Source: a virus. Taken from it: a DNA stretch of 64,000 bases. Shown in pieces: positions 7,524 to 48,857 of this stretch (its first letter is position 1; each line of letters opens with the position of its first letter). The notes beneath the pieces are model-generated. The model ran no database searches. It saw nothing but the letters and a program-made list of their open reading frames with translations, and had not been told where the DNA came from. Made by a program: the position numbers and the translations under genes. The DNA is taken from positions 9,680 to 73,679 of IMG/VR virus record IMGVR_UViG_3300017598_000441; one strand, given 5' to 3'.

Positions 7524-10175
7524 ATGAGTCAATTCGGTTCATTTTCTGGAGGAGGTTTAGGAATGGGTGTTGCGTTTAAATTGCAAGACCAATTTACTGC
7601 TACGTCTAGGAAAATCCAGACCGAGATGGGTATGCTATCTAAACAGACAGATAAAATATCCTCAAAAATAGCTTCAAGTAAAAAACTTATGATGGCAGGG
7701 GGTTCTGCTATGGCTGCTGGACTCGTGCTTGCAGCCCCCTTCATCATAGGTGTTAAAAAGAGTGCGGAGTTTAATGCGGCGATGTCTGATGTATTCGCAA
7801 AATCCAGAACAGAGGATGCAAAACTACAAGCTGCATTAAAATCCTCTGCAATACAACTAGGTACAGCCACTAAGTTTACAGCCACCGAGGCCGCTAAAGG
7901 TATGGGATTCCTAGCTATGGCAGGATTTAATGCTAGACAACAAATAGAGGCAATGCCAGGCCTTCTTAGTTTGGCAGCCGCAGGAAATACAGACTTAGCC
8001 ACAACCGCAGATATTGTATCAGATTCCATGACAGCTATGGGATTAAAAGCTACAGATGTACAGATGATGGCTGATAACATGGCGGCTACAGTAACACGTT
8101 CCAACACCGATATTATACAAATGGGGGAGGCAATGAAATATGCTTCCGCTTCTGCAAAAACTGCAGGTATTGACTTTGCTCAGTTCCAAGGAATGATAGG
8201 AATGGTGGGGGATATTGGTATCAAAGGCTCTATGGCAGGTACAGGTCTGGCACAAATGATTGCTAAGATGGGTGAAATGGTTACTAAATCTGAGAAACTA
8301 GATGTATTGAAGAGTATAGGTATAGAGAAAAACCAACTCTTAGATGCTAAAGGTAACTTCAAGGATATTACAGAAACTATACCCCTACTTGCAAAACATA
8401 TCAAAGCCATAGGTGATGGAACCCTTACTGAGGTAATAGGAAAGGATAAGATGGGCAAGGAGATAAAAGGTAATGCTGAACAGTTAATGATTGCCAGTAA
8501 ACTATTTGGTATCCGTGGAGGAAAAGCCTTTGCCGCATTTACAACCGAAGCAGGAAAAGATTTTAAGAAATTTGTAAAAACAATAAGAGAGGATACAGGG
8601 GCTGCAGATAAGATTGCCAACAAAATGCTAGATAATCTTGCAGGAGACTTCACAAAACTATCTAGTATAATAGATACTACTTTCATAAATCTGGGAGATT
8701 CTATAGAAAATTCTTTAAGACCTGTAACGAAGATTATTACCAATATGGTAGCAGGTTTCAATAAATTTATTCAAACAAAGGCAGGCAAATTTATCTTAAA
8801 AGTTACCGCAGCTTTATCAGCTTTACTTATAGTGGGTGGAGGTATAACTCTACTTATAGGAGCAATGAAGTTTGCGTTCTTTTCCCTAGCACCTGCAATT
8901 TGGGCTGCAGTAGCACCTATCCTACCCTTTGTTGCATTAATTGCAGCTATTGCAGCAGGATTTTGGCTCATGTACGAAGCAGTACAATCTGGAAGTAAGG
9001 CTATGGCAATATTTGGTACAATACTGATAACGGCTGTCTTAGGACCTATAGGGGGAGCTTTGGTGGTGGTTTTTGGAATGTTTATGAAACTCCGAAAATC
9101 CATAGGTGAGTTTAACAGAAAGACAGTAGATGAACTGGGCAAGAAAGGTGGGATAGCAGGCTTTTTTGAGAAGCTTGCAGGATTAGCTGTAGGTTTCAAG
9201 GCTGTAATATCTAGTATCTTTGGTTCCGATGGTAAAATGAAATTATCCATAGAATTAGAGAATAAGCTAGAAAAACTAGGTTTACTAGATACCGTGAAAA
9301 ACTTTGGTACTTGGGTCATCCGAATAAAGGAGTTAATGAAAGGGGTGAAAGAAGTTTTTGTGGCTACATGGAAATCCGTTAGAAAAACAATATCAAGCAC
9401 TGCTAAATGGTTGGCATCAAAGTTCAAGAGTATGGGCGGACCTTTTAAAAAATGGGGCTTACTCATATCGAAAAATACTTCTAAACTAGAGGACTGGAAG
9501 AAGATGGGTAAATTGTTAGGAAAAACAATGGTATTCATTTTAGGTGGGATAGCAGCTGCGTTTGTGGCGGTAGGAATAGTTGTAGCCGCAATCGTTGCTC
9601 CTATAGTGTTAGCTATGGTAGCCATAGGAGCAGCGATATATGCAAGCTACAAAATAGCCAAAGTAGTAGCTGATGGTATTGTGTTTGCTTGGAGAGCAGT
9701 AATATCTATATTTAACTCATTATACAGAAATATTTCCGAAGGGTTTGTAGAGGCATTTAGTTTTATACTAAATGTACATGAAAAGGCTTTTGATGCGGGG
9801 GTTAGTTTTGTTACTAATTTATGGGCAGGAATAAAAAGTATGTGGGGGCAGTTTACAGGGTGGCTAAGTGATAGTTGGGGAAGTATAGTGAATGGATTAG
9901 GTCTAGGAGGTGTATTTGGCACAGAAGAATCTGCACCAGAGATTAATGATGGAAGCAGTACAAACGACATAATCAAACCTTTTACTACCCCAGACAGAAA
10001 TGACACGTTAGCACAGCAGAACGCCAACAGATTTATTGTACCTTCTCCTACCGTGCTGAATAATAATACCAATTCGGAGAAGTTAATACAGCCTATAATA
10101 ACCTTGGACGGAGAGCAGATAGGAGCACACATGAATGGGAGAAATGCAATAGAAAACAGTAGAAACTCATATTAG
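7524..10175 (+). CDS. Tail tape measure protein (TP901-family core)
   Basis: TKFTATEAA..M.FLAMAGF and GIKGSMAGT motifs; Ala/Gly-rich with hydrophobic segments. Confidence 0.95.
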   Translation: MSQFGSFSGGGLGMGVAFKLQDQFTATSRKIQTEMGMLSKQTDKISSKIASSKKLMMAGGSAMAAGLVLAAPFIIGVKKSAEFNAAMSDVFAKSRTEDAKLQAALKSSAIQLGTATKFTATEAAKGMGFLAMAGFNARQQIEAMPGLLSLAAAGNTDLATTADIVSDSMTAMGLKATDVQMMADNMAATVTRSNTDIIQMGEAMKYASASAKTAGIDFAQFQGMIGMVGDIGIKGSMAGTGLAQMIAKMGEMVTKSEKLDVLKSIGIEKNQLLDAKGNFKDITETIPLLAKHIKAIGDGTLTEVIGKDKMGKEIKGNAEQLMIASKLFGIRGGKAFAAFTTEAGKDFKKFVKTIREDTGAADKIANKMLDNLAGDFTKLSSIIDTTFINLGDSIENSLRPVTKIITNMVAGFNKFIQTKAGKFILKVTAALSALLIVGGGITLLIGAMKFAFFSLAPAIWAAVAPILPFVALIAAIAAGFWLMYEAVQSGSKAMAIFGTILITAVLGPIGGALVVVFGMFMKLRKSIGEFNRKTVDELGKKGGIAGFFEKLAGLAVGFKAVISSIFGSDGKMKLSIELENKLEKLGLLDTVKNFGTWVIRIKELMKGVKEVFVATWKSVRKTISSTAKWLASKFKSMGGPFKKWGLLISKNTSKLEDWKKMGKLLGKTMVFILGGIAAAFVAVGIVVAAIVAPIVLAMVAIGAAIYASYKIAKVVADGIVFAWRAVISIFNSLYRNISEGFVEAFSFILNVHEKAFDAGVSFVTNLWAGIKSMWGQFTGWLSDSWGSIVNGLGLGGVFGTEESAPEINDGSSTNDIIKPFTTPDRNDTLAQQNANRFIVPSPTVLNNNTNSEKLIQPIITLDGEQIGAHMNGRNAIENSRNSY

Positions 10176-12458: not shown

Positions 12459-13184
12459 ATGGATTTTGTAGTATTTATAAAAAGGTTTAAGCTTATGGGT
12501 TTGGAGTATTTTAAAAGATATTACTCAATCTATAAGGCAGAAGTATCCAGTAATGAAGACCCTAAAGGGTTAGGTAGATTACAGCTTGTAATACCCCAAA
12601 TATACGGTAAAGATGTTTCTTATAAGTATTGGGCAAAACCTAGAGGTTTGTACTCTGGCAAAAACAAAGGGAGTTTTATTATACCAGATAAAGGAGATAA
12701 TATTTGGGTAGAGTTTGAAGGAGGAGACCCGAAGTACCCAGTCTGGAGCTATGGATTCTGGTCTGATGGGGAAGTTCCTGAGGGAGCAACGGTAGGAAAC
12801 AAAACTATCCAAACTGGTACTGGGCATAAGATAGAACTAGATGATGATAAAGGATTAATCAGAATAACTGTAGCGGAGAAAGAGTTTAGTGTAACAATAT
12901 CTGAGAGTGGTATAAGCATAGTTGCAGATAATATATCTGTAGGAACTTTGGATGAGTCCTCAGAACCTGCAGTTTTAGGGGACACTTTAAAATCAAAGTT
13001 GGACAGTATCTCAGATGAAGTTGGGAAAATAGCACAAAACACGTCAGTATTGACAGTAGGGACGGCTTTTGGACCGAGTACCCCACCAGTTAATGCAAGT
13101 GTATTTACTGCTATAAAAACAGCTATAGATTCACTAAAAACAACACTAAAGGAAATATTAAGTAAAAAAGTAACTTTAGACTAA
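12459..13184 (+). CDS. Baseplate spike (gpV/gp5 OB-fold)
   Basis: DPKGLGR, P.KGD.IWVEFEGGDP.YPVW, GHKIELDD. Confidence 0.92.
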   Translation: MDFVVFIKRFKLMGLEYFKRYYSIYKAEVSSNEDPKGLGRLQLVIPQIYGKDVSYKYWAKPRGLYSGKNKGSFIIPDKGDNIWVEFEGGDPKYPVWSYGFWSDGEVPEGATVGNKTIQTGTGHKIELDDDKGLIRITVAEKEFSVTISESGISIVADNISVGTLDESSEPAVLGDTLKSKLDSISDEVGKIAQNTSVLTVGTAFGPSTPPVNASVFTAIKTAIDSLKTTLKEILSKKVTLD

Positions 13185-13654
13185 TGCCATTACTAACTGA
13201 TATACTAAGCACAAACTTACAGAAACTTTTAAATCAAGAGTATCCCAGTTTTGAGGGATTTCCAGATAATATGGGTGGTGTTGTTGAAAGTTGGGCAAAC
13301 GCCATAAATGACTATGCTAAATCTGTTGTACCTACGAGCACAACCTCAGAACAAGCTAAAGAAGCATTTAAGAGTACTATGCTAGGAATGAGTTCTGAGT
13401 TAGGAAATGGGGCGGTCATACTCCCTTTAGCATTTACGAATTATGCGACTGCTTTAGCCTTAGGTATGGCAGGAGCAGGATTTATTGGAACACCTCCAGT
13501 AGCACCAATAAATCTAGCACCAATAATTGCTGCAGGTTTAGGGGGAGCTTCTGGGGAGATAATTGCGAATAGTTTTACAGTAGTTGTAGATATTTGGTTT
13601 AGAACAGGTACTGCCACACCTACAGCAGGAGGCTCACCTATAATTTGGACGTGA
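13184..13654 (+). CDS. Baseplate-associated protein, possibly spike tip
   Basis: Between the spike and gp25 genes; Ala/Gly/Pro-rich. Confidence 0.45.
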   Translation: MPLLTDILSTNLQKLLNQEYPSFEGFPDNMGGVVESWANAINDYAKSVVPTSTTSEQAKEAFKSTMLGMSSELGNGAVILPLAFTNYATALALGMAGAGFIGTPPVAPINLAPIIAAGLGGASGEIIANSFTVVVDIWFRTGTATPTAGGSPIIWT

Positions 13655-14046
13655 TGAATGAAGTAAAAAAATATAGTAAAACAGGAGTGGCTATAAAATA
13701 CCCAATAACTTTGGAGGAGGGAAAGGTAGCCTTAGTAACTGGGTCAGACTTAATTATACAATCTGCATTTGATATTTTATCTGCGGATGCTCCAAGATTT
13801 TTCTTAGGGGAATATAATTCGAGATTAAAAGAGCTAAAGTTTGAACAAAATGACGAAGTTTTATTATCTTTGCTACAAGTATTTATATACAATGCTTTAA
13901 AAAAATGGGAGACCCGAACTAAAGTAAAGAATATAAATTTTAACGTGGAGGAGGATTGGGTAGATTGCGAAATAACTCACCAGATAATAGGAGAGAGTAC
14001 AACAGAAAGTTTTGTATATCCTTTTTACAAAAATATAATATACTAA
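13654..14046 (+). CDS. Baseplate wedge protein (gp25/gpW-like)
   Basis: I.QS...IL, EYNSRL..L.FE, AL.KWE.R motifs; ATG at 13654 preferred. Confidence 0.88.
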   Translation: MNEVKKYSKTGVAIKYPITLEEGKVALVTGSDLIIQSAFDILSADAPRFFLGEYNSRLKELKFEQNDEVLLSLLQVFIYNALKKWETRTKVKNINFNVEEDWVDCEITHQIIGESTTESFVYPFYKNIIY

Positions 14047-14047
14047 G

Positions 14048-15718
14048 ATGGTAGAGCAAAAAAATACATGGGTAAAGTATGTTGAAAGAACATACCAACA
14101 AATAAAAGATAGTGTTTTGGTACGCCTACAAAGTCTTACCCCAGAAATAACAGACCATACAGAAAGTAATATTTTTGTTAAGATGTTAGGTATATGGGCA
14201 GGTATTGCAGAGATGTTGGGATATTATATAGACAATGTTGCTAGAGAGAGTTATATCTCTACTTGCAGATTATACTGGTCTGCAGTAAAAATAGCACAAC
14301 AGTTCGACTATAGGATATTCTCAAAATCCCCCGCTTCTGCAGATGTTACGTTTACCATAAATACAGTAAGCCTAACAGATATTACTATTCCACAAAATAC
14401 AGAATTAAAATCTAAGGGGGATTTAAAATTCCTAACAGTAGAGCCTGCAACTATAAATGTAGGTCAGTTAGAAGCAACAGTATCTGCACTACAGTTCGAT
14501 AAAGTTATTGGGGCAACCTTAGGTATATCCAACGGTTCAGATGCCCAAGTATTTGTAGTAAATGACCAAGACATTGCAGATAAAAGTGCAGTAGTAAAGA
14601 TACTAGGTAGTAACTGGGCTCATGTAGACACTTTTGCATTTAGCCTCGCAGACGATTTGCATTTTAGGATGTCCGTTAATATAGACAAACAGACAATAAT
14701 AGAATTTGGAGATGGCATAAACGGAGCTATACCTCAAAACGGAGCAACAATAACTTTGGATTACCTAACCTGTGCAGGTGCAGCAGGAAATATTGCAGCC
14801 GACCAAATTGCAGAAATAGTAGATACTATTACCCTACCCCCTAGTACAGAAATAGAAGTTACAAATAATTTAGCATCTTCTGGAGGGGTTGATATTGAGA
14901 GTTTAGATGACTTGAAACGTAGAATACCCTTATCCATAAGAACTGTAAGGGTGGCAGTAACTGAGAAAAACTTCTTAGATATTGCGAACCAAGCACCCCA
15001 AGTACAGCAGTCTGCATTGTCTTATGATTGTGGTAAGAATGTAAAAATATATGTAGTACCTATAGGTGGAGGCATTGCCAGTGAGGTATTATGTGATTCT
15101 GTAGTATTGTGGTTTGAGGATAAGAAATTATTTTCTACAAAGGTGTTTGTATTTCCTGCAGGTATGTTAGAAGTATCCCTAAACCTAAACGTACAGGCTA
15201 GGTATAACTATCAAAACATAGATGTTCAGACTAGGGTGGTAGAAAACCTAGAGGAGAGGTTTTCAATGGTATCACAGGGAATCGGAGGAAAATTAAAATT
15301 ATCCGATATATACGAAGTTGTAGAAAATACAGATGGGGTAGAATATAGTAATGTTAGACAAATAAAGTTAATACCTTATGCAAGGTCTATAGATAACTTT
15401 ATTCAACTAGATTGGACTAAAACGCTAAAAGATACAGGCAATGTATCACTGTTTTGGAAAATAACAATGATAAACCCTACTCAGTATCAATTATTCAAAG
15501 GGAGTACTTTCCAAGGGACTTATGACGTAGGTACTTTAGCAACTTTTGTGGAGATAGATTTTGTAGTAAATCTAGGGGCGTATAATACTGGGGATGAGTG
15601 GGAATTTGTAACTTACCCAAGTTTCCAAAGCAATAACGGAATAATAGAGTTGGAAGAGTTTTCCGTACCTGTTATTCTACAGAATAACACGGTAATAAAT
15701 GTAACTGGAGGTATATAG
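14048..15718 (+). CDS. Baseplate J / T4 gp6-like wedge protein
   Basis: FGDGING.IP and GG.D.ESLDDLK.R.P......AVT..NF motifs. Confidence 0.92.
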   Translation: MVEQKNTWVKYVERTYQQIKDSVLVRLQSLTPEITDHTESNIFVKMLGIWAGIAEMLGYYIDNVARESYISTCRLYWSAVKIAQQFDYRIFSKSPASADVTFTINTVSLTDITIPQNTELKSKGDLKFLTVEPATINVGQLEATVSALQFDKVIGATLGISNGSDAQVFVVNDQDIADKSAVVKILGSNWAHVDTFAFSLADDLHFRMSVNIDKQTIIEFGDGINGAIPQNGATITLDYLTCAGAAGNIAADQIAEIVDTITLPPSTEIEVTNNLASSGGVDIESLDDLKRRIPLSIRTVRVAVTEKNFLDIANQAPQVQQSALSYDCGKNVKIYVVPIGGGIASEVLCDSVVLWFEDKKLFSTKVFVFPAGMLEVSLNLNVQARYNYQNIDVQTRVVENLEERFSMVSQGIGGKLKLSDIYEVVENTDGVEYSNVRQIKLIPYARSIDNFIQLDWTKTLKDTGNVSLFWKITMINPTQYQLFKGSTFQGTYDVGTLATFVEIDFVVNLGAYNTGDEWEFVTYPSFQSNNGIIELEEFSVPVILQNNTVINVTGGI

Positions 15719-19163: not shown

Positions 19164-20576
19164 ATGCAAGAAAGGATACACGAATATAAGCAGGAAGATT
19201 CTACATTCTCCTTGAACAGAAAATATTTAGGGATATTGGATGCAGGTGTGTACAGAGGGTTTGATGCAATACTAGGAGACAATATGATACTTACACTTAC
19301 CCACACTATGACAGGGGTTAAGCAGTATGACTTGGATTTGTCCCCAAAAGATGTAGGGGTAATCATAACCAAACAGGGGAATGTAATAAGGGAAGATGAA
19401 GATATTACACTCAATATAAATGTAGGACCTTCTGGGTCTTATGAATCTAGGATTGACCTAATAGTAGTAGAACACAGATTTGTAGAAACTACAGGGGGTA
19501 CGCAAGCATTATACTCAGTAATAGAGGGAGTCCCAGACCAACAACCTGTAGTACCAAATCTTTTGAATGAGGCCACTCAAGTCCCTATAGCTACCATGCA
19601 GGTTTATGAAAACTCACAGGAGCTTAATGGAACTAGAAATTTCTTTAAAAAATTTCCACCCCCAAATTATTCGGGAACTTCTGATGCTTTATTAAAATCA
19701 GAAAATCTAAACGATGTAGTAGATAAACAAACTGCACGTGATAATTTACAATTAAGGCGAGGGGTTGAGATAACTTCTGAAATAGAGGATGCGGTAAATG
19801 TGGTGGCTTCTGCAATCATAGGAGGTGCAAACACTAACTTCAATACTTTAGGTAAACTAGAGGCTATACTACAAGGGGACCCAAACATAATACAGAATAT
19901 TACATCTGCTTTGAGTGGTAAAGTAGATAAAATTTCGGGTAAAGGGTTATCCCAAGAGGATTTTACAGCTACTTTACTAGGCAAACTGAATAGTATAAAT
20001 CTAGGGGCAGCAGTAGGAAATGTGCCTGCTATAGGAGAGGCACTAGGGGCTAATAAGATAGTGGAGACGAATGGCTCTGGGGAACTAAAATCTGTATCAA
20101 AAGGCTCTGCACATAATAAATCTTGGGCAGGAACAGGTGGTCACTATGGAACTTCTGGCAGTCCAGCAAGAAGCAATCACTACCACACCAGTTATGCAGC
20201 CATAGAGACAAAAGATATAAAAACAGGTACAGCTGCATTTACAGATAATACTAGTGGAGATATAGGGATAGACCCCACTTCATATACAAGGATATTAAAA
20301 ACTGCAGATAAAATACTTATAGAGTTTTGTCTGAAAGTTACCCCCCTGTCTGGCTCAGTTCCAGAATTAGAGGTAGGGTTCGATGATGTATCAGTATTTC
20401 CAGTAGTTACTGGAGTATATATTCCTTTTGTAGTTAGGCGAAGTGGTTCACCAGAACCTTGCTACTATAGACCTGTAGCATCCACCCCCACACGAGGTTT
20501 CTTTAGTATGATGTCTGGGACATTTAACTGGAATATTCAATATATTATTTCGGGAAGTTACACAAGAATATTATGA
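19164..20576 (+). CDS. Tail fibre protein
   Basis: SRIDLIV baseplate-attachment-like N-terminus; NL.DV.DK..AR.NL, NTL.KL and KVDK..GKGLS..DFT fibre motifs. Confidence 0.8.
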   Translation: MQERIHEYKQEDSTFSLNRKYLGILDAGVYRGFDAILGDNMILTLTHTMTGVKQYDLDLSPKDVGVIITKQGNVIREDEDITLNINVGPSGSYESRIDLIVVEHRFVETTGGTQALYSVIEGVPDQQPVVPNLLNEATQVPIATMQVYENSQELNGTRNFFKKFPPPNYSGTSDALLKSENLNDVVDKQTARDNLQLRRGVEITSEIEDAVNVVASAIIGGANTNFNTLGKLEAILQGDPNIIQNITSALSGKVDKISGKGLSQEDFTATLLGKLNSINLGAAVGNVPAIGEALGANKIVETNGSGELKSVSKGSAHNKSWAGTGGHYGTSGSPARSNHYHTSYAAIETKDIKTGTAAFTDNTSGDIGIDPTSYTRILKTADKILIEFCLKVTPLSGSVPELEVGFDDVSVFPVVTGVYIPFVVRRSGSPEPCYYRPVASTPTRGFFSMMSGTFNWNIQYIISGSYTRIL

Positions 20577-21229
20577 TACTAACAAAGGTAAGAGACTATC
20601 TAGACAAAGGATTGATAATTTCTGCACTAATACAATTCAGATGTATATATCCAAACATCGTAGAGGGATTAGAAATAATCACAAAATACAGAAGTTTGGA
20701 ATCTACTTATCTTTTAGGGAATATCTCAGAGCAAGAATATACAACAGGCAGAAACAAATTAGTTTCTGCTTTTTTAAATTTAATTAACACACTAGAGGAA
20801 AACCCTCCAGAAAAACCTATTATTATGAAATTCGAGATTGAAAAACAAGTAGTAAATGGACAGGTAAATATTGCAGATACTATCAATATAGGTACGAAAT
20901 TTGCAGAGACTTTCACATCAAAAAAAGAGTACAGCCCAGAAGATACAGATTTACTAAAAGTGGTTGGGGAAGTAGGGGATGAGGAGGATAAAAAAGACGT
21001 ACCTACGGCTGTAGATGAATTTAATGAGGATGAGGAAAAGAAAGAAAGTGCGAAAGAAAGAATTACCAACTTCATAAAAACATACGGCACACCTATTTTT
21101 AAAATATTGGGAAAAGTGGCATTAGGGTTACTGTTAGCTAAATATGGACTTAGTGCAAAAGATTTGTCCTTAGACAGCACTCAGAAAAAACCAGAAATAG
21201 AAGATTCAGAAATAGACGAAAAAAACTAA
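20573..21229 (+). CDS. Protein with N-terminal EAD11 (effector-associated domain 11), acidic linker and C-terminal hydrophobic helix
   Basis: VRDYLDKGLIISAL...YRSLE...LGNISEQEYTTGRNKLVSAFLNLI fits the EAD11 pattern. Confidence 0.7.
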   Translation: MILTKVRDYLDKGLIISALIQFRCIYPNIVEGLEIITKYRSLESTYLLGNISEQEYTTGRNKLVSAFLNLINTLEENPPEKPIIMKFEIEKQVVNGQVNIADTINIGTKFAETFTSKKEYSPEDTDLLKVVGEVGDEEDKKDVPTAVDEFNEDEEKKESAKERITNFIKTYGTPIFKILGKVALGLLLAKYGLSAKDLSLDSTQKKPEIEDSEIDEKN

Positions 21230-21232
21230 ACC

Positions 21233-22147
21233 GTGGCAGTATCACATACTATTTTCACCGCTATTTTCATAGCCATTTTTACGATTCTTATAATAATGTA
21301 CCTACTAGCTAGTAAAGCAATAAGTAGGATAATGAAAATAGTGGCTGAAATAAAAACAGATGAAAGGAATAACCATAAGATACTGAGAGACTTGTCGGTA
21401 CAAGTAACCCAATTAGGTAACTCTTTTATAGAACTGGAGTCTAATGTGGATGTAAAATCTGGCTCGGATTTAGAATACCATACAGATATGGAATTAGTAA
21501 AACTTACCGTGCTAACTCCGTTCAATGATTTAAAATTATACCTAAACCGAAAACGTACCATATTAGTAGAGGAGGCTAAGAGGATGGCAAATATTGGAAT
21601 TAAAAATTCTGATTTTACAAATATTGAGGATAAGTGGGAGAGTATGAGATACGAGCTCAAAGATTTTTCAGATGGGTTATCGGAGGATTTCAAAAACTAT
21701 AATGCAACTAAACCATCAAACGAGCATTGGAAACTAGATGACTTTCTAAATGACTTATCCCACGCACTTAAATACGGAAATGGGAGCAGAGATATAATTT
21801 TCTTAAACCAGATGAAGGTTTATATAAAAACTCAGTTAGAATACACGTTTAAAGATTATACTAGGTTCAAGGTGGAATCTTTAGGGGTGGATTCTTTAGA
21901 TGTAAGTAAAACCTACCTAATAAAATTACTGGAGGAGGATAATATAGAGATGGTATTATTCCAACTTCGTAACCAAACCCAAAGTAATACAGAGTTAAGC
22001 AGCAGGCTATCTCTTATACAGGCTCAGTACAACAGGCAGATAAAAGACAAGAACTCTGGCACATTCTCGGAGGAGGCTTTAAGAATATCCTGTAACAAAG
22101 TTAGGGCTGCAGTATTAGATTTTATAAAGGTAGTAGATATACATTAA
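21233..22147 (+). CDS. Membrane-anchored protein with C-terminal EAD11 domain
   Basis: N-terminal TM helix (IFTAIFIAIFTILIIMYLL); C-terminal LSLIQAQYNRQIKDKNSGTFSEEALRISCNKVRAAVLDFI. Confidence 0.7.
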   Translation: MAVSHTIFTAIFIAIFTILIIMYLLASKAISRIMKIVAEIKTDERNNHKILRDLSVQVTQLGNSFIELESNVDVKSGSDLEYHTDMELVKLTVLTPFNDLKLYLNRKRTILVEEAKRMANIGIKNSDFTNIEDKWESMRYELKDFSDGLSEDFKNYNATKPSNEHWKLDDFLNDLSHALKYGNGSRDIIFLNQMKVYIKTQLEYTFKDYTRFKVESLGVDSLDVSKTYLIKLLEEDNIEMVLFQLRNQTQSNTELSSRLSLIQAQYNRQIKDKNSGTFSEEALRISCNKVRAAVLDFIKVVDIH

Positions 22148-22180
22148 TTTTGGTTTATATCAAAAAATATTGTATCTTTG
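22148..22180 (+). promoter_or_regulatory. Promoter of the replication module
   Basis: TTTTGG-N19-TATCTTTG. Confidence 0.75.
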
Positions 22181-22202: not shown

Positions 22203-23648
22203 ATGACATTAGAGTTTGAAGAGAATATTCTTAGATACCTTGCCAATCCTAGTAATAAGAATAAAAAATTTATTGCTATTATTGAAGAAGATATATTTGA
22301 AGTACTTGAACATAAAATCGTGTTCAAATTATTGACTGGATATATAGAAGATTATAGATGTGTACCCACACAGATAGATTTTGTGGAATATACCAGTAGG
22401 CAAATGGAGATGGGAGATGTTGAAAGAGACATCTCAAAAGCCATACTAAGATTTGTAAAAAGAGGTCTATACAAACCTGTAGAAACTTCTGGAAAGTTCC
22501 TAAAAGAAACCATTGTAGAATTTGCTCAATTCAAACTTATGAGCAATATGTTTGTAGAGTACGCCCCTAGACTTATAGAGGGCGTAACTCTGTTTCGTCA
22601 AGCAAAAAATAGAATGTTAGATATTCTGGCTTTGTCAGATGATGACTCCGACAATTTCATACAGAGAGGGGGAGATATTCTAGTGAATGGTGGACTGGAT
22701 ACAGGAAAACTTAGCAAGGTTCTATACACACCTTACCAAGGTCTGAATATGACTATGGGAAGCCACGGTATAACGTCCCCAGAACTTGTGGTACTTATGG
22801 CAGGCTCAAAAGCCTTCAAAACAGGAGTTATGATTAACATAGCTATAGGTATGGCTAAAAGAGGTAGCAAAGTTTACTATGCAGATGGAGAAAATGGCTA
22901 CAAATCCATATCTCAAAGGGTTAAACAGAATGTTTGTGAATGTACCAAGTGGGAAGTAGTAGGGAATGCTTTTGAAGAGGAGATAGATGCCTATGGGGAT
23001 GTAATAGAACAAGAATCTGTATCAGATATGTTTGAAGCAGCATCCACTCAGATAAAAATGGTTGGAGGGGCATTTGTGATAGATAGTTATGCACCCTCTA
23101 CAGCAACCGTGGCAGATGTGGAAGATTCTTTAGAGCAATACAAAGAAGAGACAGGGTTTGAGCCAGATATAATATTTTGGGATGACAGTTCACACTTTAT
23201 TCCTAGGAAACCACAAGGGGCAGACCACCTAGATAGCCAAAGGGTTATAAAAGATATAATCGGACTGAATATGAAATTAGGGTGTGCATCCTTTACTCCT
23301 GCACAGGTAACTAGAGATGCAGTAGATAAACCTCTAATCTCAATAAAAGATATAGGCAGAGATTATGGAATAGTGAAGTACGCCCATGTAATATTATCTA
23401 TAATAAGAAGCGTTCAAGAAAGAGAAGCTAACCTAGCCCAGTTATATTCTGTAGTGCAGAGGGAGGGAAAAAGCCAAGTAGGTGCCTGTATGTTAAAATT
23501 CAATGAAGAAAGAATGCAAGCAGATGAGGTAAGTTGGGAAGAAGCTGCAGAAATCACAGAGAATATGAGTGATTACACCCCAGATAATGTAAGAGGTAAA
23601 AAATCTGAGTATAAAGAGCAGATAGGAAAAATAAAAAGAAACAAATAA
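22203..23648 (+). CDS. DnaB-like replicative helicase
   Basis: Variant Walker A AGSKAFKT, YADGE, PDIIFWD, AQVTRDA; ATG 22203 follows an ACACAC leader. Confidence 0.8.
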   Translation: MTLEFEENILRYLANPSNKNKKFIAIIEEDIFEVLEHKIVFKLLTGYIEDYRCVPTQIDFVEYTSRQMEMGDVERDISKAILRFVKRGLYKPVETSGKFLKETIVEFAQFKLMSNMFVEYAPRLIEGVTLFRQAKNRMLDILALSDDDSDNFIQRGGDILVNGGLDTGKLSKVLYTPYQGLNMTMGSHGITSPELVVLMAGSKAFKTGVMINIAIGMAKRGSKVYYADGENGYKSISQRVKQNVCECTKWEVVGNAFEEEIDAYGDVIEQESVSDMFEAASTQIKMVGGAFVIDSYAPSTATVADVEDSLEQYKEETGFEPDIIFWDDSSHFIPRKPQGADHLDSQRVIKDIIGLNMKLGCASFTPAQVTRDAVDKPLISIKDIGRDYGIVKYAHVILSIIRSVQEREANLAQLYSVVQREGKSQVGACMLKFNEERMQADEVSWEEAAEITENMSDYTPDNVRGKKSEYKEQIGKIKRNK

Positions 23649-23681
23649 TTTGTAAAGAAACTAATTATTCACTACATTTGT

Positions 23682-23807: not shown

Positions 23808-24056
23808 ATGAGAGACTTAGTAATAGCAGTACTTATACTTTTAATAGCCCTTACAGGTTGTATAAGTAACGAAAAAAGATTAGAAGATGTTAAGAATAAA
23901 AACCCCGAACTAAGAATACACCACGACCCCAAAAGACCCTATTTGTATGTTACCAATGACAGTATAAATGAAAGATTCATAATATACGAATCTTACAGGG
24001 ATATGTTCTTGGAAACTAATGCAATATATTTTCCCTACGACAGCATAAATAAGTAA
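23808..24056 (+). CDS. Small lipoprotein
   Basis: Hydrophobic signal peptide with lipobox LTGC. Confidence 0.7.
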   Translation: MRDLVIAVLILLIALTGCISNEKRLEDVKNKNPELRIHHDPKRPYLYVTNDSINERFIIYESYRDMFLETNAIYFPYDSINK

Positions 24057-33776: not shown

Positions 33777-33855
33777 AATAGGTAATTAATTTTGGTATAT
33801 ATCAAAACTTTTATTATCTTTGCAATACTAATTAACATTAACAAATTCTACAAAA

Positions 33856-35208
33856 ATGAGAAAATTAGATTTAGGAGCGAACGAAAAGAACGCAGAAAAG
33901 TTAGGAGGGTTCGGAGGTTCCGAAGTATTCTACTTAGGGAAAGAAATGGATGATGAAATATACATCCGAGTAATCTACCCTCTGGAAAATCAAAATGGTA
34001 TGGTAAGTTTCCAAGCGGCAAAATGGTGGTTAGGTAGTAAACCTATCATGTCCCCAGAAAACAAAGTGGATGGCTTTGATGTAGTGGAAGATGAGTTAGA
34101 CCTTATCAAACAAGAGTACGAGGATGATACTAGAATGCTGAAAAGCATAAATAAAAAAACCTCAAACAACAAAGATTTTAAAAAGTCTTACGAACAATTA
34201 TTTCTGGGAGTACCTTTTGATTTTGATTTCAACGATGAGTTAGAAATCAAAGACATCTGGATTAGTGACCTTACCCGAGAGGAGGCATACGAGGCTCGCA
34301 TGGAGGTTAAAAAAGGGAAATACAAAAATGCAGCAGAAGCTATAGATGCAATGTGGGGCATAAAAGTTTCCGAGGATGAGAACATAGGAACGGAAGAACC
34401 TATTGATTTTGATAAACTTAAAAAAGCCATGATAGGAGATGGAGAAATCAAAATCATAAGTACTGGGGTACAGGCTATGAAAGAAGTGATTTCTACCTTT
34501 TCAAAAAAGGCAGCTTTAAAGCACTCAGTAAAATGTGACCTACTCACTTTGGATAATGTACGAGGGGTAAACACTATGGTATTCAAAAAAGGAAAAGGGT
34601 TGAACACCAAATACAGTTCAGATGCAGATACGTTCCCTATGGAAATGCCAGATTTCTATGATAATGATAATAACAAGCCAGATATTATCAAATTCGTAGA
34701 AGCCCAAATCAAGCCAGAAGCATGGATTAGAGCATACGTTAGATTCTATGTACTAGGAGAAGAGGAACCTGCAGATGATTATGGTCAAGATGGTGCAGAA
34801 ACAAGCAACCGAAGACAACCGAAGACAACCGAAAGAAGAAGACGTAGAGATGACGATGACGAACCTACTGAAACCAGAAAACGTAAAGATACTAATTCTG
34901 AGCCTGTAGATACTGGGAGAAAACGTAAAGATACTAATTCTGAGCCTGTAGATACTGGGAGAAAACGTAGAGATACTAATTCTGAGCCTGTAGATACTGG
35001 GAGAAAACGTAGAGATGCCCCTAAAGAGGAGGAGAAACCTACTGGGAGAAAACGTAAAGATACCGAAGAGAAGCCTACCAATAGAAGAAAAGCAGAGTTC
35101 GAGCCGAATGAAGAAAACTTCGAGAAGGAGAAAAAGGAGAACCTATCTCTGGCAGATTCTATGGAGAAAATGGAGAAATCTGATGAGGAGGAGTTAGATA
35201 ATTTATAA
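33856..35208 (+). CDS. Putative single-stranded DNA-binding protein (gp32-like) with repetitive charged tail
   Basis: Directly after polA; own promoter (33790-33822) and terminator; GKGLNTKYS; acidic end. Confidence 0.5.
   Translation: MRKLDLGANEKNAEKLGGFGGSEVFYLGKEMDDEIYIRVIYPLENQNGMVSFQAAKWWLGSKPIMSPENKVDGFDVVEDELDLIKQEYEDDTRMLKSINKKTSNNKDFKKSYEQLFLGVPFDFDFNDELEIKDIWISDLTREEAYEARMEVKKGKYKNAAEAIDAMWGIKVSEDENIGTEEPIDFDKLKKAMIGDGEIKIISTGVQAMKEVISTFSKKAALKHSVKCDLLTLDNVRGVNTMVFKKGKGLNTKYSSDADTFPMEMPDFYDNDNNKPDIIKFVEAQIKPEAWIRAYVRFYVLGEEEPADDYGQDGAETSNRRQPKTTERRRRRDDDDEPTETRKRKDTNSEPVDTGRKRKDTNSEPVDTGRKRRDTNSEPVDTGRKRRDAPKEEEKPTGRKRKDTEEKPTNRRKAEFEPNEENFEKEKKENLSLADSMEKMEKSDEEELDNL
34876..35016 (+). 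repeat. 42-bp tandem repeat, about 3.4 copies (RKRKDTNSEPVDTG)
   Basis: AGAAAACGTAAAGATACTAATTCTGAGCCTGTAGATACTGGG near-identical copies. Confidence 0.95.
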
Positions 35209-35215
35209 ACAAACT

Positions 35216-35248
35216 AAAAACCCTCAAAATCAATTTTGGGGGTTTTTT
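35216..35248 (+). terminator. Intrinsic terminator
   Basis: AAAAACCCTCAAAAT-CA-ATTTTGGGGGTTTTTT. Confidence 0.85.
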
Positions 35249-39459: not shown

Positions 39460-39505
39460 ATAAATTTTGGTATATTAAAAAATTTATACTATCTTTGTGA
39501 TAATT

Positions 39506-43218: not shown

Positions 43219-43556
43219 TGACAAGAGAAGAATTAGTATCCGAAATGAAAAATGGAGTATCAGTATTCCATTTTATTAAAAAAGATGGAACCACCAGAAG
43301 AGCGGTAGGAACACTAAACCCTAAAATAATAGCAGGTTTTGAGGATTCCGTAAAACATAGGGAGCTGAAAACTAAGGTAGCAAGTGCTATCAGAAACTGT
43401 AGGGATGGATTGCATTCTGCAGAAGTAGGTCTACAGTCTTTGGAGGAGCCGACAATAGTAAGCAAAGAACGTAAACTCTACCCCAATACTCAAAATTACT
43501 ATGATATTGAGAAACAGCTTTGGAGGATGTTTATAATTGAAAATTTGGTACAGTAG
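43218..43556 (+). CDS. DUF2693 / WYL_2 SH3-like protein
   Basis: F.FIKKDGT.R.A.GTLN...YYDIEK..WR.F. Confidence 0.8.
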   Translation: MTREELVSEMKNGVSVFHFIKKDGTTRRAVGTLNPKIIAGFEDSVKHRELKTKVASAIRNCRDGLHSAEVGLQSLEEPTIVSKERKLYPNTQNYYDIEKQLWRMFIIENLVQ

Positions 43557-43557
43557 C

Positions 43558-43588
43558 AAGAAAAGCCGTACATTTGCGGCTTTTCTTA
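43558..43588 (+). terminator. Hairpin that may serve as terminator and encloses a TACATTTG promoter element
   Basis: AAGAAAAGCCGTA-CATT-TGCGGCTTTTCTT. Confidence 0.6.
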
Positions 43589-43605: not shown

Positions 43606-44184
43606 ATGAAGAAGTATTTATTTATTACCCTATTCATTGCCCTAAGCAAAACAATACCCGCAGGACCTTGTGATACTCCTATACTGGAGGTAGCATTGCA
43701 AGATAAGGCTCCCGAGAAAATACCAGATGAGAAACTGCAGGAGTCTCAAACATTGCCAGAGGGTATTATAGAAATAATGAAACGCCACGAAGAGTTCAGT
43801 CCAGAAGTCATAATTCTGGATAAACCTTATATAGGCTATGGGCATGAAGTTGAACTAGGTGCAGATAGGGTTACAGAGGAACAGGCAGACAGCCTACTAA
43901 GGGCAGACATTAGAATTAATATGAATATCCTAGCAACCAAAAATCTAAGGAAATTCCATAAAAAACTGGAGCATAGGTACTTAATATTAGCCTCAGTCCT
44001 TGCTTATAATGTAGGTTGGGTAAATGTATATAAAAGTAAATTCCTAAAGAAAATAAACGAGGGATACTCAGATTCCGAAATACTAGAAGAATTTATAGGA
44101 TTCCACTTCTGGAGAGGTAAACCTCATGTAAAATTAAAAAGGAGGAGAGTGGAAGAGGCAGAAGCATGGTTAGAATTATATTGA
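43606..44184 (+). CDS. GH24 lysozyme-like protein with signal peptide
   Basis: IGYGH, TEEQADSLLRAD, AYNVG, L.RRR..E; N-terminus MKKYLFITLFIALS. Confidence 0.85.
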   Translation: MKKYLFITLFIALSKTIPAGPCDTPILEVALQDKAPEKIPDEKLQESQTLPEGIIEIMKRHEEFSPEVIILDKPYIGYGHEVELGADRVTEEQADSLLRADIRINMNILATKNLRKFHKKLEHRYLILASVLAYNVGWVNVYKSKFLKKINEGYSDSEILEEFIGFHFWRGKPHVKLKRRRVEEAEAWLELY

Positions 44185-48322: not shown

Positions 48323-48805
48323 ATGAAAAGAATGATTTCGCTATTTACACTAGCATTTCTTATGATTGCGTTAGCATACGCAGGTCCTCCAGAAGGGGAG
48401 AATGACCCAGTAAACAAAACCTTAACAGAACTAGGACTGGACGAAGTAGATAAGAGTATTGAAGTTCTAACTTTTATTGTTACACCGAACAGCGTTGCTC
48501 AGAATGAATTTGCTGCGGTTGTACACTCCACAGAGGAGACACTTCAAAGTACTATTATTTGCAGGAAAAGGGAGACATATTTTGAAGACCCGTATTTTGA
48601 TAACGACAAGCTTTTTTACAGAACTGGAGTAGGATTAACAGACAAATTATATTACCTACCTAATTGTAAAAACAGAAAGCTAAGCAACACTCTATTTTTT
48701 GGTGTTAGTTCGGGAGGTCTATCTGGTTTGTGTAACCTAACTCAGAATACCTTTTATAAAAACTTATTAAGTAACGGAAATGGCAGCGGTGGTTTATCTC
48801 ACTAA
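48323..48805 (+). CDS. Secreted hypothetical protein
   Basis: Signal peptide ending ALAYA; own promoter and terminator. Confidence 0.7.
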   Translation: MKRMISLFTLAFLMIALAYAGPPEGENDPVNKTLTELGLDEVDKSIEVLTFIVTPNSVAQNEFAAVVHSTEETLQSTIICRKRETYFEDPYFDNDKLFYRTGVGLTDKLYYLPNCKNRKLSNTLFFGVSSGGLSGLCNLTQNTFYKNLLSNGNGSGGLSH

Positions 48806-48828: not shown

Positions 48829-48857
48829 AAACCCTAATCAAATGATTAGGGTTTTTT
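48829..48857 (+). terminator. Intrinsic terminator
   Basis: AAACCCTAATCA-AA-TGATTAGGGTTTTTT. Confidence 0.88.

Follow-up and report, generated by a model that had tools for sequence, protein, structure and literature searches.

Effector-associated domains (EADs) are small non-enzymatic domains of bacterial conflict systems; one copy is carried by a core NTPase component and another by an effector, frequently the product of the neighbouring gene, and the copies are predicted to dock homotypically, in a Death-domain-like manner (PMC7159879, PMC8195603). In Haliscomenobacter and Saprospiraceae, LRR+AP-GTPase+COR proteins carry EAD11 as their C-terminal domain, sometimes with TIR after it; the published architectures include COR+EAD11 and COR+EAD11+TIR, and in the published network EAD11 recovers itself only, with no profile link to Death-like domains (PMC8195603 supplement). 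Here we consider two adjacent genes of an uncultured phage, open reading frames (ORFs) 1 and 2, in a 64,000-nt window comprising bases 9680-73679 of IMG/VR record IMGVR_UViG_3300017598_000441 (73,679 bp, rated complete by CheckV). ORF2 carries a recognised EAD11 and ORF1 a probable diverged one; we put at roughly 35% the probability that their products act as an enzyme-less adaptor pair that plugs into the EAD11 immune wiring of the host at the membrane. To our knowledge, the wiring of sensors to suicide effectors through EADs has hardly been tested by experiment, and a phage adaptor without an enzyme is a natural probe of that predicted wiring. Full-text literature searches returned no paper on phage-encoded EADs.

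A bacterial set of EAD11 proteins is available for comparison. Seven EAD11 matches are found on the plasmids pHALHY01 and pHALHY02 of Haliscomenobacter hydrossis (including those in NC_015512.1 120000-137000); among them are two long AP-GTPase frames, a SIR2 protein, a 155-residue EAD11-only protein (WP_013769095.1, pHALHY02) and a 277-residue protein that joins EAD11 to a membrane helix (WP_013769099.1, pHALHY02). In the last of these, EAD11 occupies residues 9-84 and scores 24.9 bits, just under the Pfam cut-off, and the membrane helix spans residues 106-124. The plasmid set is a compact natural EAD11 network and a useful test bed.

The original prediction for this locus, drawn from the DNA alone, had described a phage-encoded pair of EAD11 adaptors in mirrored architectures; its account of EADs as Death-domain-like homotypic adaptors, with EAD11 in Bacteroidetes, agrees with the literature (PMC7159879, PMC8195603). 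The two reading frames lie exactly where it placed them. Their features, in coordinates of the window, on whose + strand all the genes lie, are as follows.

20573-21229, + strand: ORF1, 218 amino acids, ATG start; EAD11-like domain, linker, acidic helices, moderately hydrophobic helix and acidic tail.
20573-20803, + strand: ORF1 residues 1-77, probable diverged EAD11 of four helices (Pfam 21.7 bits, E 2e-4).
20746-20780, + strand: terminator-like hairpin in ORF1 codons 58-69; perfect 10-bp stem, 6-nt loop and T-run.
20933-21052, + strand: ORF1 residues 121-160, acidic helical segment, net charge -11.
21095-21151, + strand: ORF1 residues 175-193, lysine-containing helix; Kyte-Doolittle hydropathy 1.48 over 19 residues, three lysines, predicted local distance difference test (pLDDT) below 50.
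21233-22147, + strand: ORF2, 304 amino acids, GTG start; anchor, stalk, conserved helical body and EAD11.
21251-21310, + strand: ORF2 residues 7-26, transmembrane helix, predicted N-out/C-in; Kyte-Doolittle hydropathy 2.85 (residues 7-25).
21323-21460, + strand: ORF2 residues 31-76, helical stalk, coiled-coil-like; 18% mean pairwise identity, low pLDDT.
21461-21880, + strand: ORF2 residues 77-216, family-specific helical body; 32% mean pairwise identity.
21902-22132, + strand: ORF2 residues 224-300, EAD11 domain (Pfam 39 bits, E 8e-10).

By its sequence, ORF2 belongs to EAD11 (PF19964), as the original prediction had it: the domain passes the curated cut-off of 26 bits, with residues 229-299 covering profile positions 6-77 of 80. 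When the 73.7-kb genome was searched in six frames, it scored 42.8 bits (E 3.3e-12), and a profile made from six EAD11 domains of Haliscomenobacter gave it 22.8 bits. AlphaFold2 places four helices at the C-terminus (residues 224-234, 238-249, 253-275 and 280-300). At the other end of the protein, the predicted N-terminal transmembrane helix is also upheld, and it depends on the GTG start, since the deposited gene call begins at M34 and is therefore devoid of the helix. All ten relatives of ORF2 have this helix, which argues that the long GTG form is probably real. In all ten family members, the N-terminal flank of the helix carries a charge of -2 to +1 and the C-terminal flank 2-5 lysines plus arginines; by the positive-inside rule, the body and EAD11 would face the cytoplasm, which supports the suggestion that ORF2 presents its adaptor domain at the membrane. 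The stalk gave weak coiled-coil matches in a PDB sequence search. The body bears the motifs LTPxxDLKxYL, YGNGS and YIKxQLExTFKDY and matched nothing in Pfam, PHROG, NCBIfam, PADLOC or PDB, and nothing usable in the ESM Atlas; a PADLOC BrxA match (13 bits, E 0.011) was insignificant and was set aside.

The ORF2 family is small. Only ten full-length relatives, of 267-331 amino acids, came out of an exhaustive HMMER search against 1.84 billion representative proteins, and all of them keep the anchor-body-EAD11 design as stand-alone proteins that start at the membrane helix; Pfam recognises EAD11 in seven of the ten. The sources of the relatives are metagenome contigs no longer than 58 kb. None was found in 185,579 species genomes or in plasmids, none turned up in scans of viral contigs or metagenome contigs, and deposited phages gave none by blastn and only chance matches (E 5) by tblastn. 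No longer, fused form scored, which is weak evidence. Four contigs are on record with proteins identical to ORF1 and ORF2; the longest of these contigs, at 103,872 bp, exceeds the 73,679-bp record rated complete, and could represent either a concatemer or a genome variant of larger size.

The N-terminal domain of ORF1 is probably a diverged EAD11, which we do not file as a member of the family. ORF1 (E 6e-6) and ORF2 were the only two EAD11 matches in the six-frame search of the genome. With two home-made profiles, ORF1 scored 11.3 bits against the EAD11 of the ORF2 family and 6.9 bits against the six Haliscomenobacter domains, and neither score was reached by any of 2000 composition-preserving shuffles per profile. 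BLASTP aligned ORF1 with WP_013769095.1 at E 9e-4 (16/50 identical), in an alignment that extends beyond the domain into the linker, and with ORF2 at E 0.015 (8/27 identical). In the AlphaFold2 model, residues 2-76 form four N-terminal helices (2-11, 15-25, 30-47 and 53-76), whose short-short-long-long layout is common to ORF2 residues 224-300. VIA-align laid both domains on the same stretches of the same proteins, which were generic four-helix bundles only (Z up to 8.1 for ORF1 and 9.0 for ORF2); Foldseek against PDB returned nothing at E up to 0.001, and PDB sequence searches gave no family match. The top feature match of ORF1 in the ESM Atlas was a Bacteroidota EAD11 cluster at 0.79, a lead only, and hhalign gave ORF1 a probability of only 3.6%. 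Pfam matches to DUF6987, DMAP_binding and VPS28 were insignificant and were discarded. Searches for relatives of ORF1 recovered only ORF1 itself, which makes it an orphan. An EAD11 assignment for ORF1 is thus backed by the shuffles, the BLASTP alignment and the helix layout, while the Pfam score falls short of the family cut-off.

In the remainder of ORF1, the linker that follows the domain is modelled by AlphaFold2 with low confidence. Its acidic character, expected from the outset, is borne out by the net charge of segment 121-160. The hydrophobic C-terminal helix that had also been expected is present at residues 175-193; with its three lysines and a hydropathy of 1.48, it lies below the usual transmembrane threshold and may be a peripheral membrane anchor rather than a clear transmembrane helix. 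Neither a lipobox nor a signal peptide was found in ORF1. ORF2 starts three bases past the ORF1 stop (spacer TAA ACC) and shares its frame, a 1-in-3 chance event that is probably a coincidence. Read-through into a single 524-residue protein with EAD11 at each end was considered and rejected, because the relatives of ORF2 all stand alone and start at the membrane helix. The hairpin within ORF1 has a folding free energy of -12.9 kcal/mol (z -4.9). Strictly defined, hairpins of this kind number only four on the + strand of the window, and the other three (at 35221, 43562 and 48830) are intergenic. It may be an attenuator that throttles expression of ORF1 and ORF2.

The pair closes the tail module, as the original prediction had noted. 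The genes and the promoter that define this setting are as follows.

7524-10175, + strand: tape-measure gene, upstream of ORF1 and ORF2.
12459-15718, + strand: baseplate genes, upstream of ORF1 and ORF2.
19164-20576, + strand: tail-fibre-like gene, 470 amino acids; matches PHROG tail-fibre and tail families (best E 5.8e-9; phrog_2631, tail fibre, E 2.4e-6).
22149-22180, + strand: Bacteroidota-type promoter (TTTG, 20 nt, TATCTTTG), directly 3' of ORF2, which opens the replication module.

The stop codon of the tail-fibre-like gene overlaps the start of ORF1 in an ATGA. On the other side of the pair, beyond the promoter, the ATG of a DnaB-type helicase lies at 22203 and is followed by genes for primase, dUTPase, helicases, a family A DNA polymerase, SbcCD, RusA and ligase. 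For the promoter pattern TTTG-N17-21-TAnnTTTG, 11 occurrences were counted where 2.45 would be expected; none of 100 shuffles reached that count, and this enrichment fits a Bacteroidota host; the host is probably a member of that phylum. No such motif occurs between 18632 and 22145, and a good one follows ORF2 directly, which makes the pair the tail end of a late structural unit: ORF1 and ORF2 are probably transcribed with the late tail genes, and promoter 22149-22180 marks the 3' end of the unit. A near-identical promoter cassette (TTTGGT[A/T]TATAT ... TATCTTTG) is found at 22149-22180, 33791-33822 and 39466-39497, where it precedes the helicase gene, a 450-residue gene at 33856 and the RusA gene, respectively; the three look like one class of replication-module promoter.

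No deposited phage resembling the region was found. The best matches of the DNA ligase are gammaproteobacterial, at 30-36% identity, which is uninformative on the host. Used as a synteny query, the helicase found no related viral contig, and the polymerase found two distant ones, both devoid of EAD11 and of the ORF2 family. In the nearest retrievable phage, whose polymerase is 33% identical, the pair is absent, which points to an accessory pair.

It is very probable that ORF2 is a single-pass inner-membrane protein with a cytoplasmic stalk, body and EAD11, that ORF1 is soluble or peripheral, and that both are read with the late tail genes. In the favoured account, ORF2 would leave only a few residues outside and would hold its stalk, helical body and C-terminal EAD11 in the cytoplasm, whereas ORF1 would contribute its diverged N-terminal EAD11, the acidic linker and the lysine-bearing hydrophobic helix. 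By like-with-like docking, the pair would attach to EAD11 proteins of the host, namely AP-GTPase sensors and SIR2- or TIR-type effectors, which, once held at the membrane or capped, would be unable to assemble sensor with effector. The timing would fit, in that the pair would be made together with the structural genes, and phage structural proteins, the major capsid protein among them, can be recognised by bacterial receptors (PMC13581612).

Several considerations favour docking as an adaptor. Homotypic docking is the only known role of EAD11, and the phage has neither a core component nor an effector: neither protein carries such an EAD-system domain by Pfam, PADLOC and NCBIfam, and the other phage genes that were scanned likewise gave none. 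The EAD11 of ORF2 is predicted to lie in the cytoplasm, where the EAD11 proteins of the host are. The Bacteroidota-type promoters, together with the existence of EAD11 wiring in Bacteroidota, support docking onto host proteins. The retention of the ORF2 design in all ten relatives, and the closer likeness of ORF1 to a bacterial EAD11 protein than to ORF2, also speak for this account. If the pair does block the EAD11 systems of its host, viral Death-fold decoys would have a bacterial counterpart in it, and a decoy of this kind would provide a handle to show that EAD-EAD docking is real and necessary.

Several points weigh against this account. Docking of the two proteins to each other or to host proteins is so far a prediction; a complex prediction for ORF2 residues 218-304 with ORF1 residues 1-82 scored 0.00, which we read neither for nor against binding. 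EAD11 systems in the host are presupposed, and the host itself is only probably a member of Bacteroidota. Anti-defence genes are more often early, and ORF1 and ORF2 sit in a late structural operon. The 21.7 bits of ORF1 are under the Pfam EAD11 cut-off of 26, and the match is confined to residues 38-75, which correspond to profile positions 43-80, the last two helices. The helical body of ORF2 is better conserved than its EAD11 (32% against 24% mean pairwise identity), and a plain decoy would need neither a conserved body nor a membrane anchor, both of which ORF2 has. Finally, low expression through the hairpin inside ORF1, if it occurs, may be odd for a decoy that would act stoichiometrically.

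The lysis genes of the phage bear on another account of the pair. One is recognisable.

43606-44184, + strand: endolysin, phage lysozyme (Pfam Phage_lysozyme 41.2 bits; PHROG endolysin E 1.5e-10).

The endolysin frame opens at 43537, and its probable start, M24 at 43606, begins an export signal that is signal-peptide-like or signal-arrest-release (SAR)-like. It is the sole recognisable lysis gene of the genome and is set among replication genes, with neither a holin nor a spanin beside it; membrane helices are likewise absent from the products of the adjoining genes. Just upstream come a promoter-like motif (43544-43576) and a hairpin (43562-43583). The earlier remark that no holin was evident holds for the whole genome, in that a hydropathy scan of all ORFs of at least 35 residues found no ordinary small multi-helix holin. 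In that scan, ORF2 is the only strongly membrane-embedded protein besides the tape measure, a lipoprotein (23808) and a secreted protein (48323), and ORF1 is the next most hydrophobic non-structural protein. The lipoprotein-like gene (23808-24056), the only one of its kind, follows a promoter motif (23649-23680) in the interval that separates the helicase gene from the primase gene, and is thus past the helicase rather than adjoining ORF2; its 82-residue product has a lipoprotein-type signal (a hydrophobic stretch ending in LTGC) and no family match, and could be receptor-blocking or spanin-like. The secreted protein (48323-48805, 160 residues) has a clear N-terminal signal peptide, a Gly/Ser-rich C-terminus and no family match, and a strong terminator hairpin (48830-48853) lies downstream of its gene.

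The main alternative, which we regard as unlikely, makes the pair a lysis timer. ORF2 would be holin-like or depolarising, its helices clustered by polymerisation of EAD11 and the body, and ORF1 would be the trigger or the brake, acting through EAD11 contact and through a membrane-active helix of its own; de-energising of the membrane would activate the exported endolysin. The place of the pair among late genes at the end of the tail operon suits such a role, as do the export signal of an endolysin that no membrane protein adjoins, the outcome of the holin scan and the hydrophobicity of both proteins. Yet Pfam and PHROGs link neither ORF1 nor ORF2 to a family of holins, antiholins or spanins, ORF2 is about 21.5-22 kb from the endolysin rather than its neighbour, and 304 residues with a large conserved cytoplasmic domain are atypical of holins. 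The predicted N-out/C-in topology of ORF2 is opposite to that of the single-helix T4 holin and of i-spanins (as those topologies are generally known), and the family is predicted to be C-in where a two-component spanin would have an N-in/C-out anchor with a periplasmic coiled coil and a lipoprotein partner encoded next to or within its gene; moreover, in phages with a secreted endolysin, small holins below the size and hydropathy limits may go unrecognised. The endolysin at 43.6 kb, which the original prediction had missed when it raised the possibility of a lysis switch, makes that idea more concrete, not more proven. In a related scheme, which we consider quite unlikely, the phage would have taken the adaptor domain from a host suicide system and would use its self-assembly as a lysis clock, with clustering of ORF2, gated by ORF1, de-energising the membrane and releasing the endolysin. 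Lysis timing by such a pair would add a new type to the lysis controls of Bacteroidota phages, and a lysis clock would amount to a holin-type function that rests on a polymerising, Death-domain-like adaptor. The alternative that we doubt most is a conflict module owned by the phage, a small system of effector plus adaptor for superinfection exclusion or inter-phage warfare. On entry of a rival phage or mobile element, the pair would harm the membrane or stop some step, with the body of ORF2 serving as sensor or effector. The 'EAD principle' predicts a single system from adjacent genes that share an EAD (PMC7159879), and in paralogous host proteins membrane-helix effectors take the position of EAD11 (COR+TM+TM, TM being a transmembrane helix; PMC8195603 supplement). 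A bacterial protein that combines EAD11 with a membrane helix exists in WP_013769099.1, and the pair is accessory, as its absence from the nearest retrievable phage indicates. Against this, neither an NTPase or sensor domain nor a match to a PADLOC defence model was found, and the domain of ORF2 is cytoplasmic, unlike usual injection blockers. The two copies of EAD11 are also not each other's closest relatives, as cognate adjacent EADs are described to be: ORF1 is closer to WP_013769095.1 than to ORF2.

It is also quite unlikely that the two genes are unrelated neighbours, the EAD11 likeness of ORF1 being chance or a relic and the body of ORF2 working alone, for example as a membrane tether for replication or assembly, with its EAD11 used for self-association only. 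The partial, sub-threshold Pfam match of ORF1 and its hhalign probability would then have a simple explanation, and the same account accommodates an orphan ORF1 beside an ORF2 with ten relatives, a body more conserved than the EAD11, and a replication module that directly follows ORF2. It is harder to square with the finding that the only two EAD11 matches of the genome fall in adjacent genes, with the scores of ORF1 above all 2000 shuffles against two independent profiles, or with an alignment to a genuine EAD11 protein that runs past the domain edge; the common helix layout and the shared stretches of generic four-helix bundles likewise speak for a relationship between the two domains. Overall, what the original prediction observed is partly confirmed and its interpretation partly supported; between the functions that it offered, a decoy, an exclusion system and a lysis switch, the sequence evidence decides in favour of none.

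Compared with described EAD conflict systems, the domains of ORF1 and ORF2 resemble PF19964 in being small, all-helical and terminal, in being encoded by adjacent genes as in the 'EAD principle' and in their Bacteroidota setting; they differ in that the carrier is a phage and that no AP-GTPase, STAND or vWA-MoxR core or enzymatic effector was found. The small EAD11 proteins of Haliscomenobacter offer the closest parallels to ORF1. WP_013769099.1 has the same order of EAD11, linker and hydrophobic helix and, like ORF1, scores below the Pfam cut-off, and WP_013769095.1 aligns with ORF1 over the last EAD11 helix and the linker that follows. By contrast, the helix of ORF1 is much less hydrophobic than that of WP_013769099.1 (Kyte-Doolittle hydropathy 1.48 against 2.35), its linker is strongly acidic, unlike those of the plasmid proteins, and the plasmid proteins are bacterial and lie in an island with other EAD11 proteins. 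ORF2 departs further from them, with the anchor first and EAD11 last and a body found in no bacterial genome searched.

Two kinds of viral proteins provide functional comparisons. Holins act in pairs with antiholins, e.g., T4 T with RI and RIII, and pinholins serve exported (SAR) endolysins. The phage pair resembles these in consisting of a late one-helix membrane protein and the product of a partner gene, in a genome with an export-signal endolysin and no other holin candidate; ORF2 is unlike T4 T in its opposite predicted topology, the lack of a sequence match, its distance from the endolysin and its large conserved cytoplasmic part. Animal viruses encode adaptor-only Death-fold decoys, such as vFLIP, viral pyrin-only and CARD-only proteins. 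Binding or inhibition by the phage EAD11 proteins is, by contrast, a prediction, and EAD11 has no profile link to Death domains; the likeness lies in the design, in that the phage, as those viruses do, carries a homotypic immune adaptor domain without the enzyme to which it is attached in the host.

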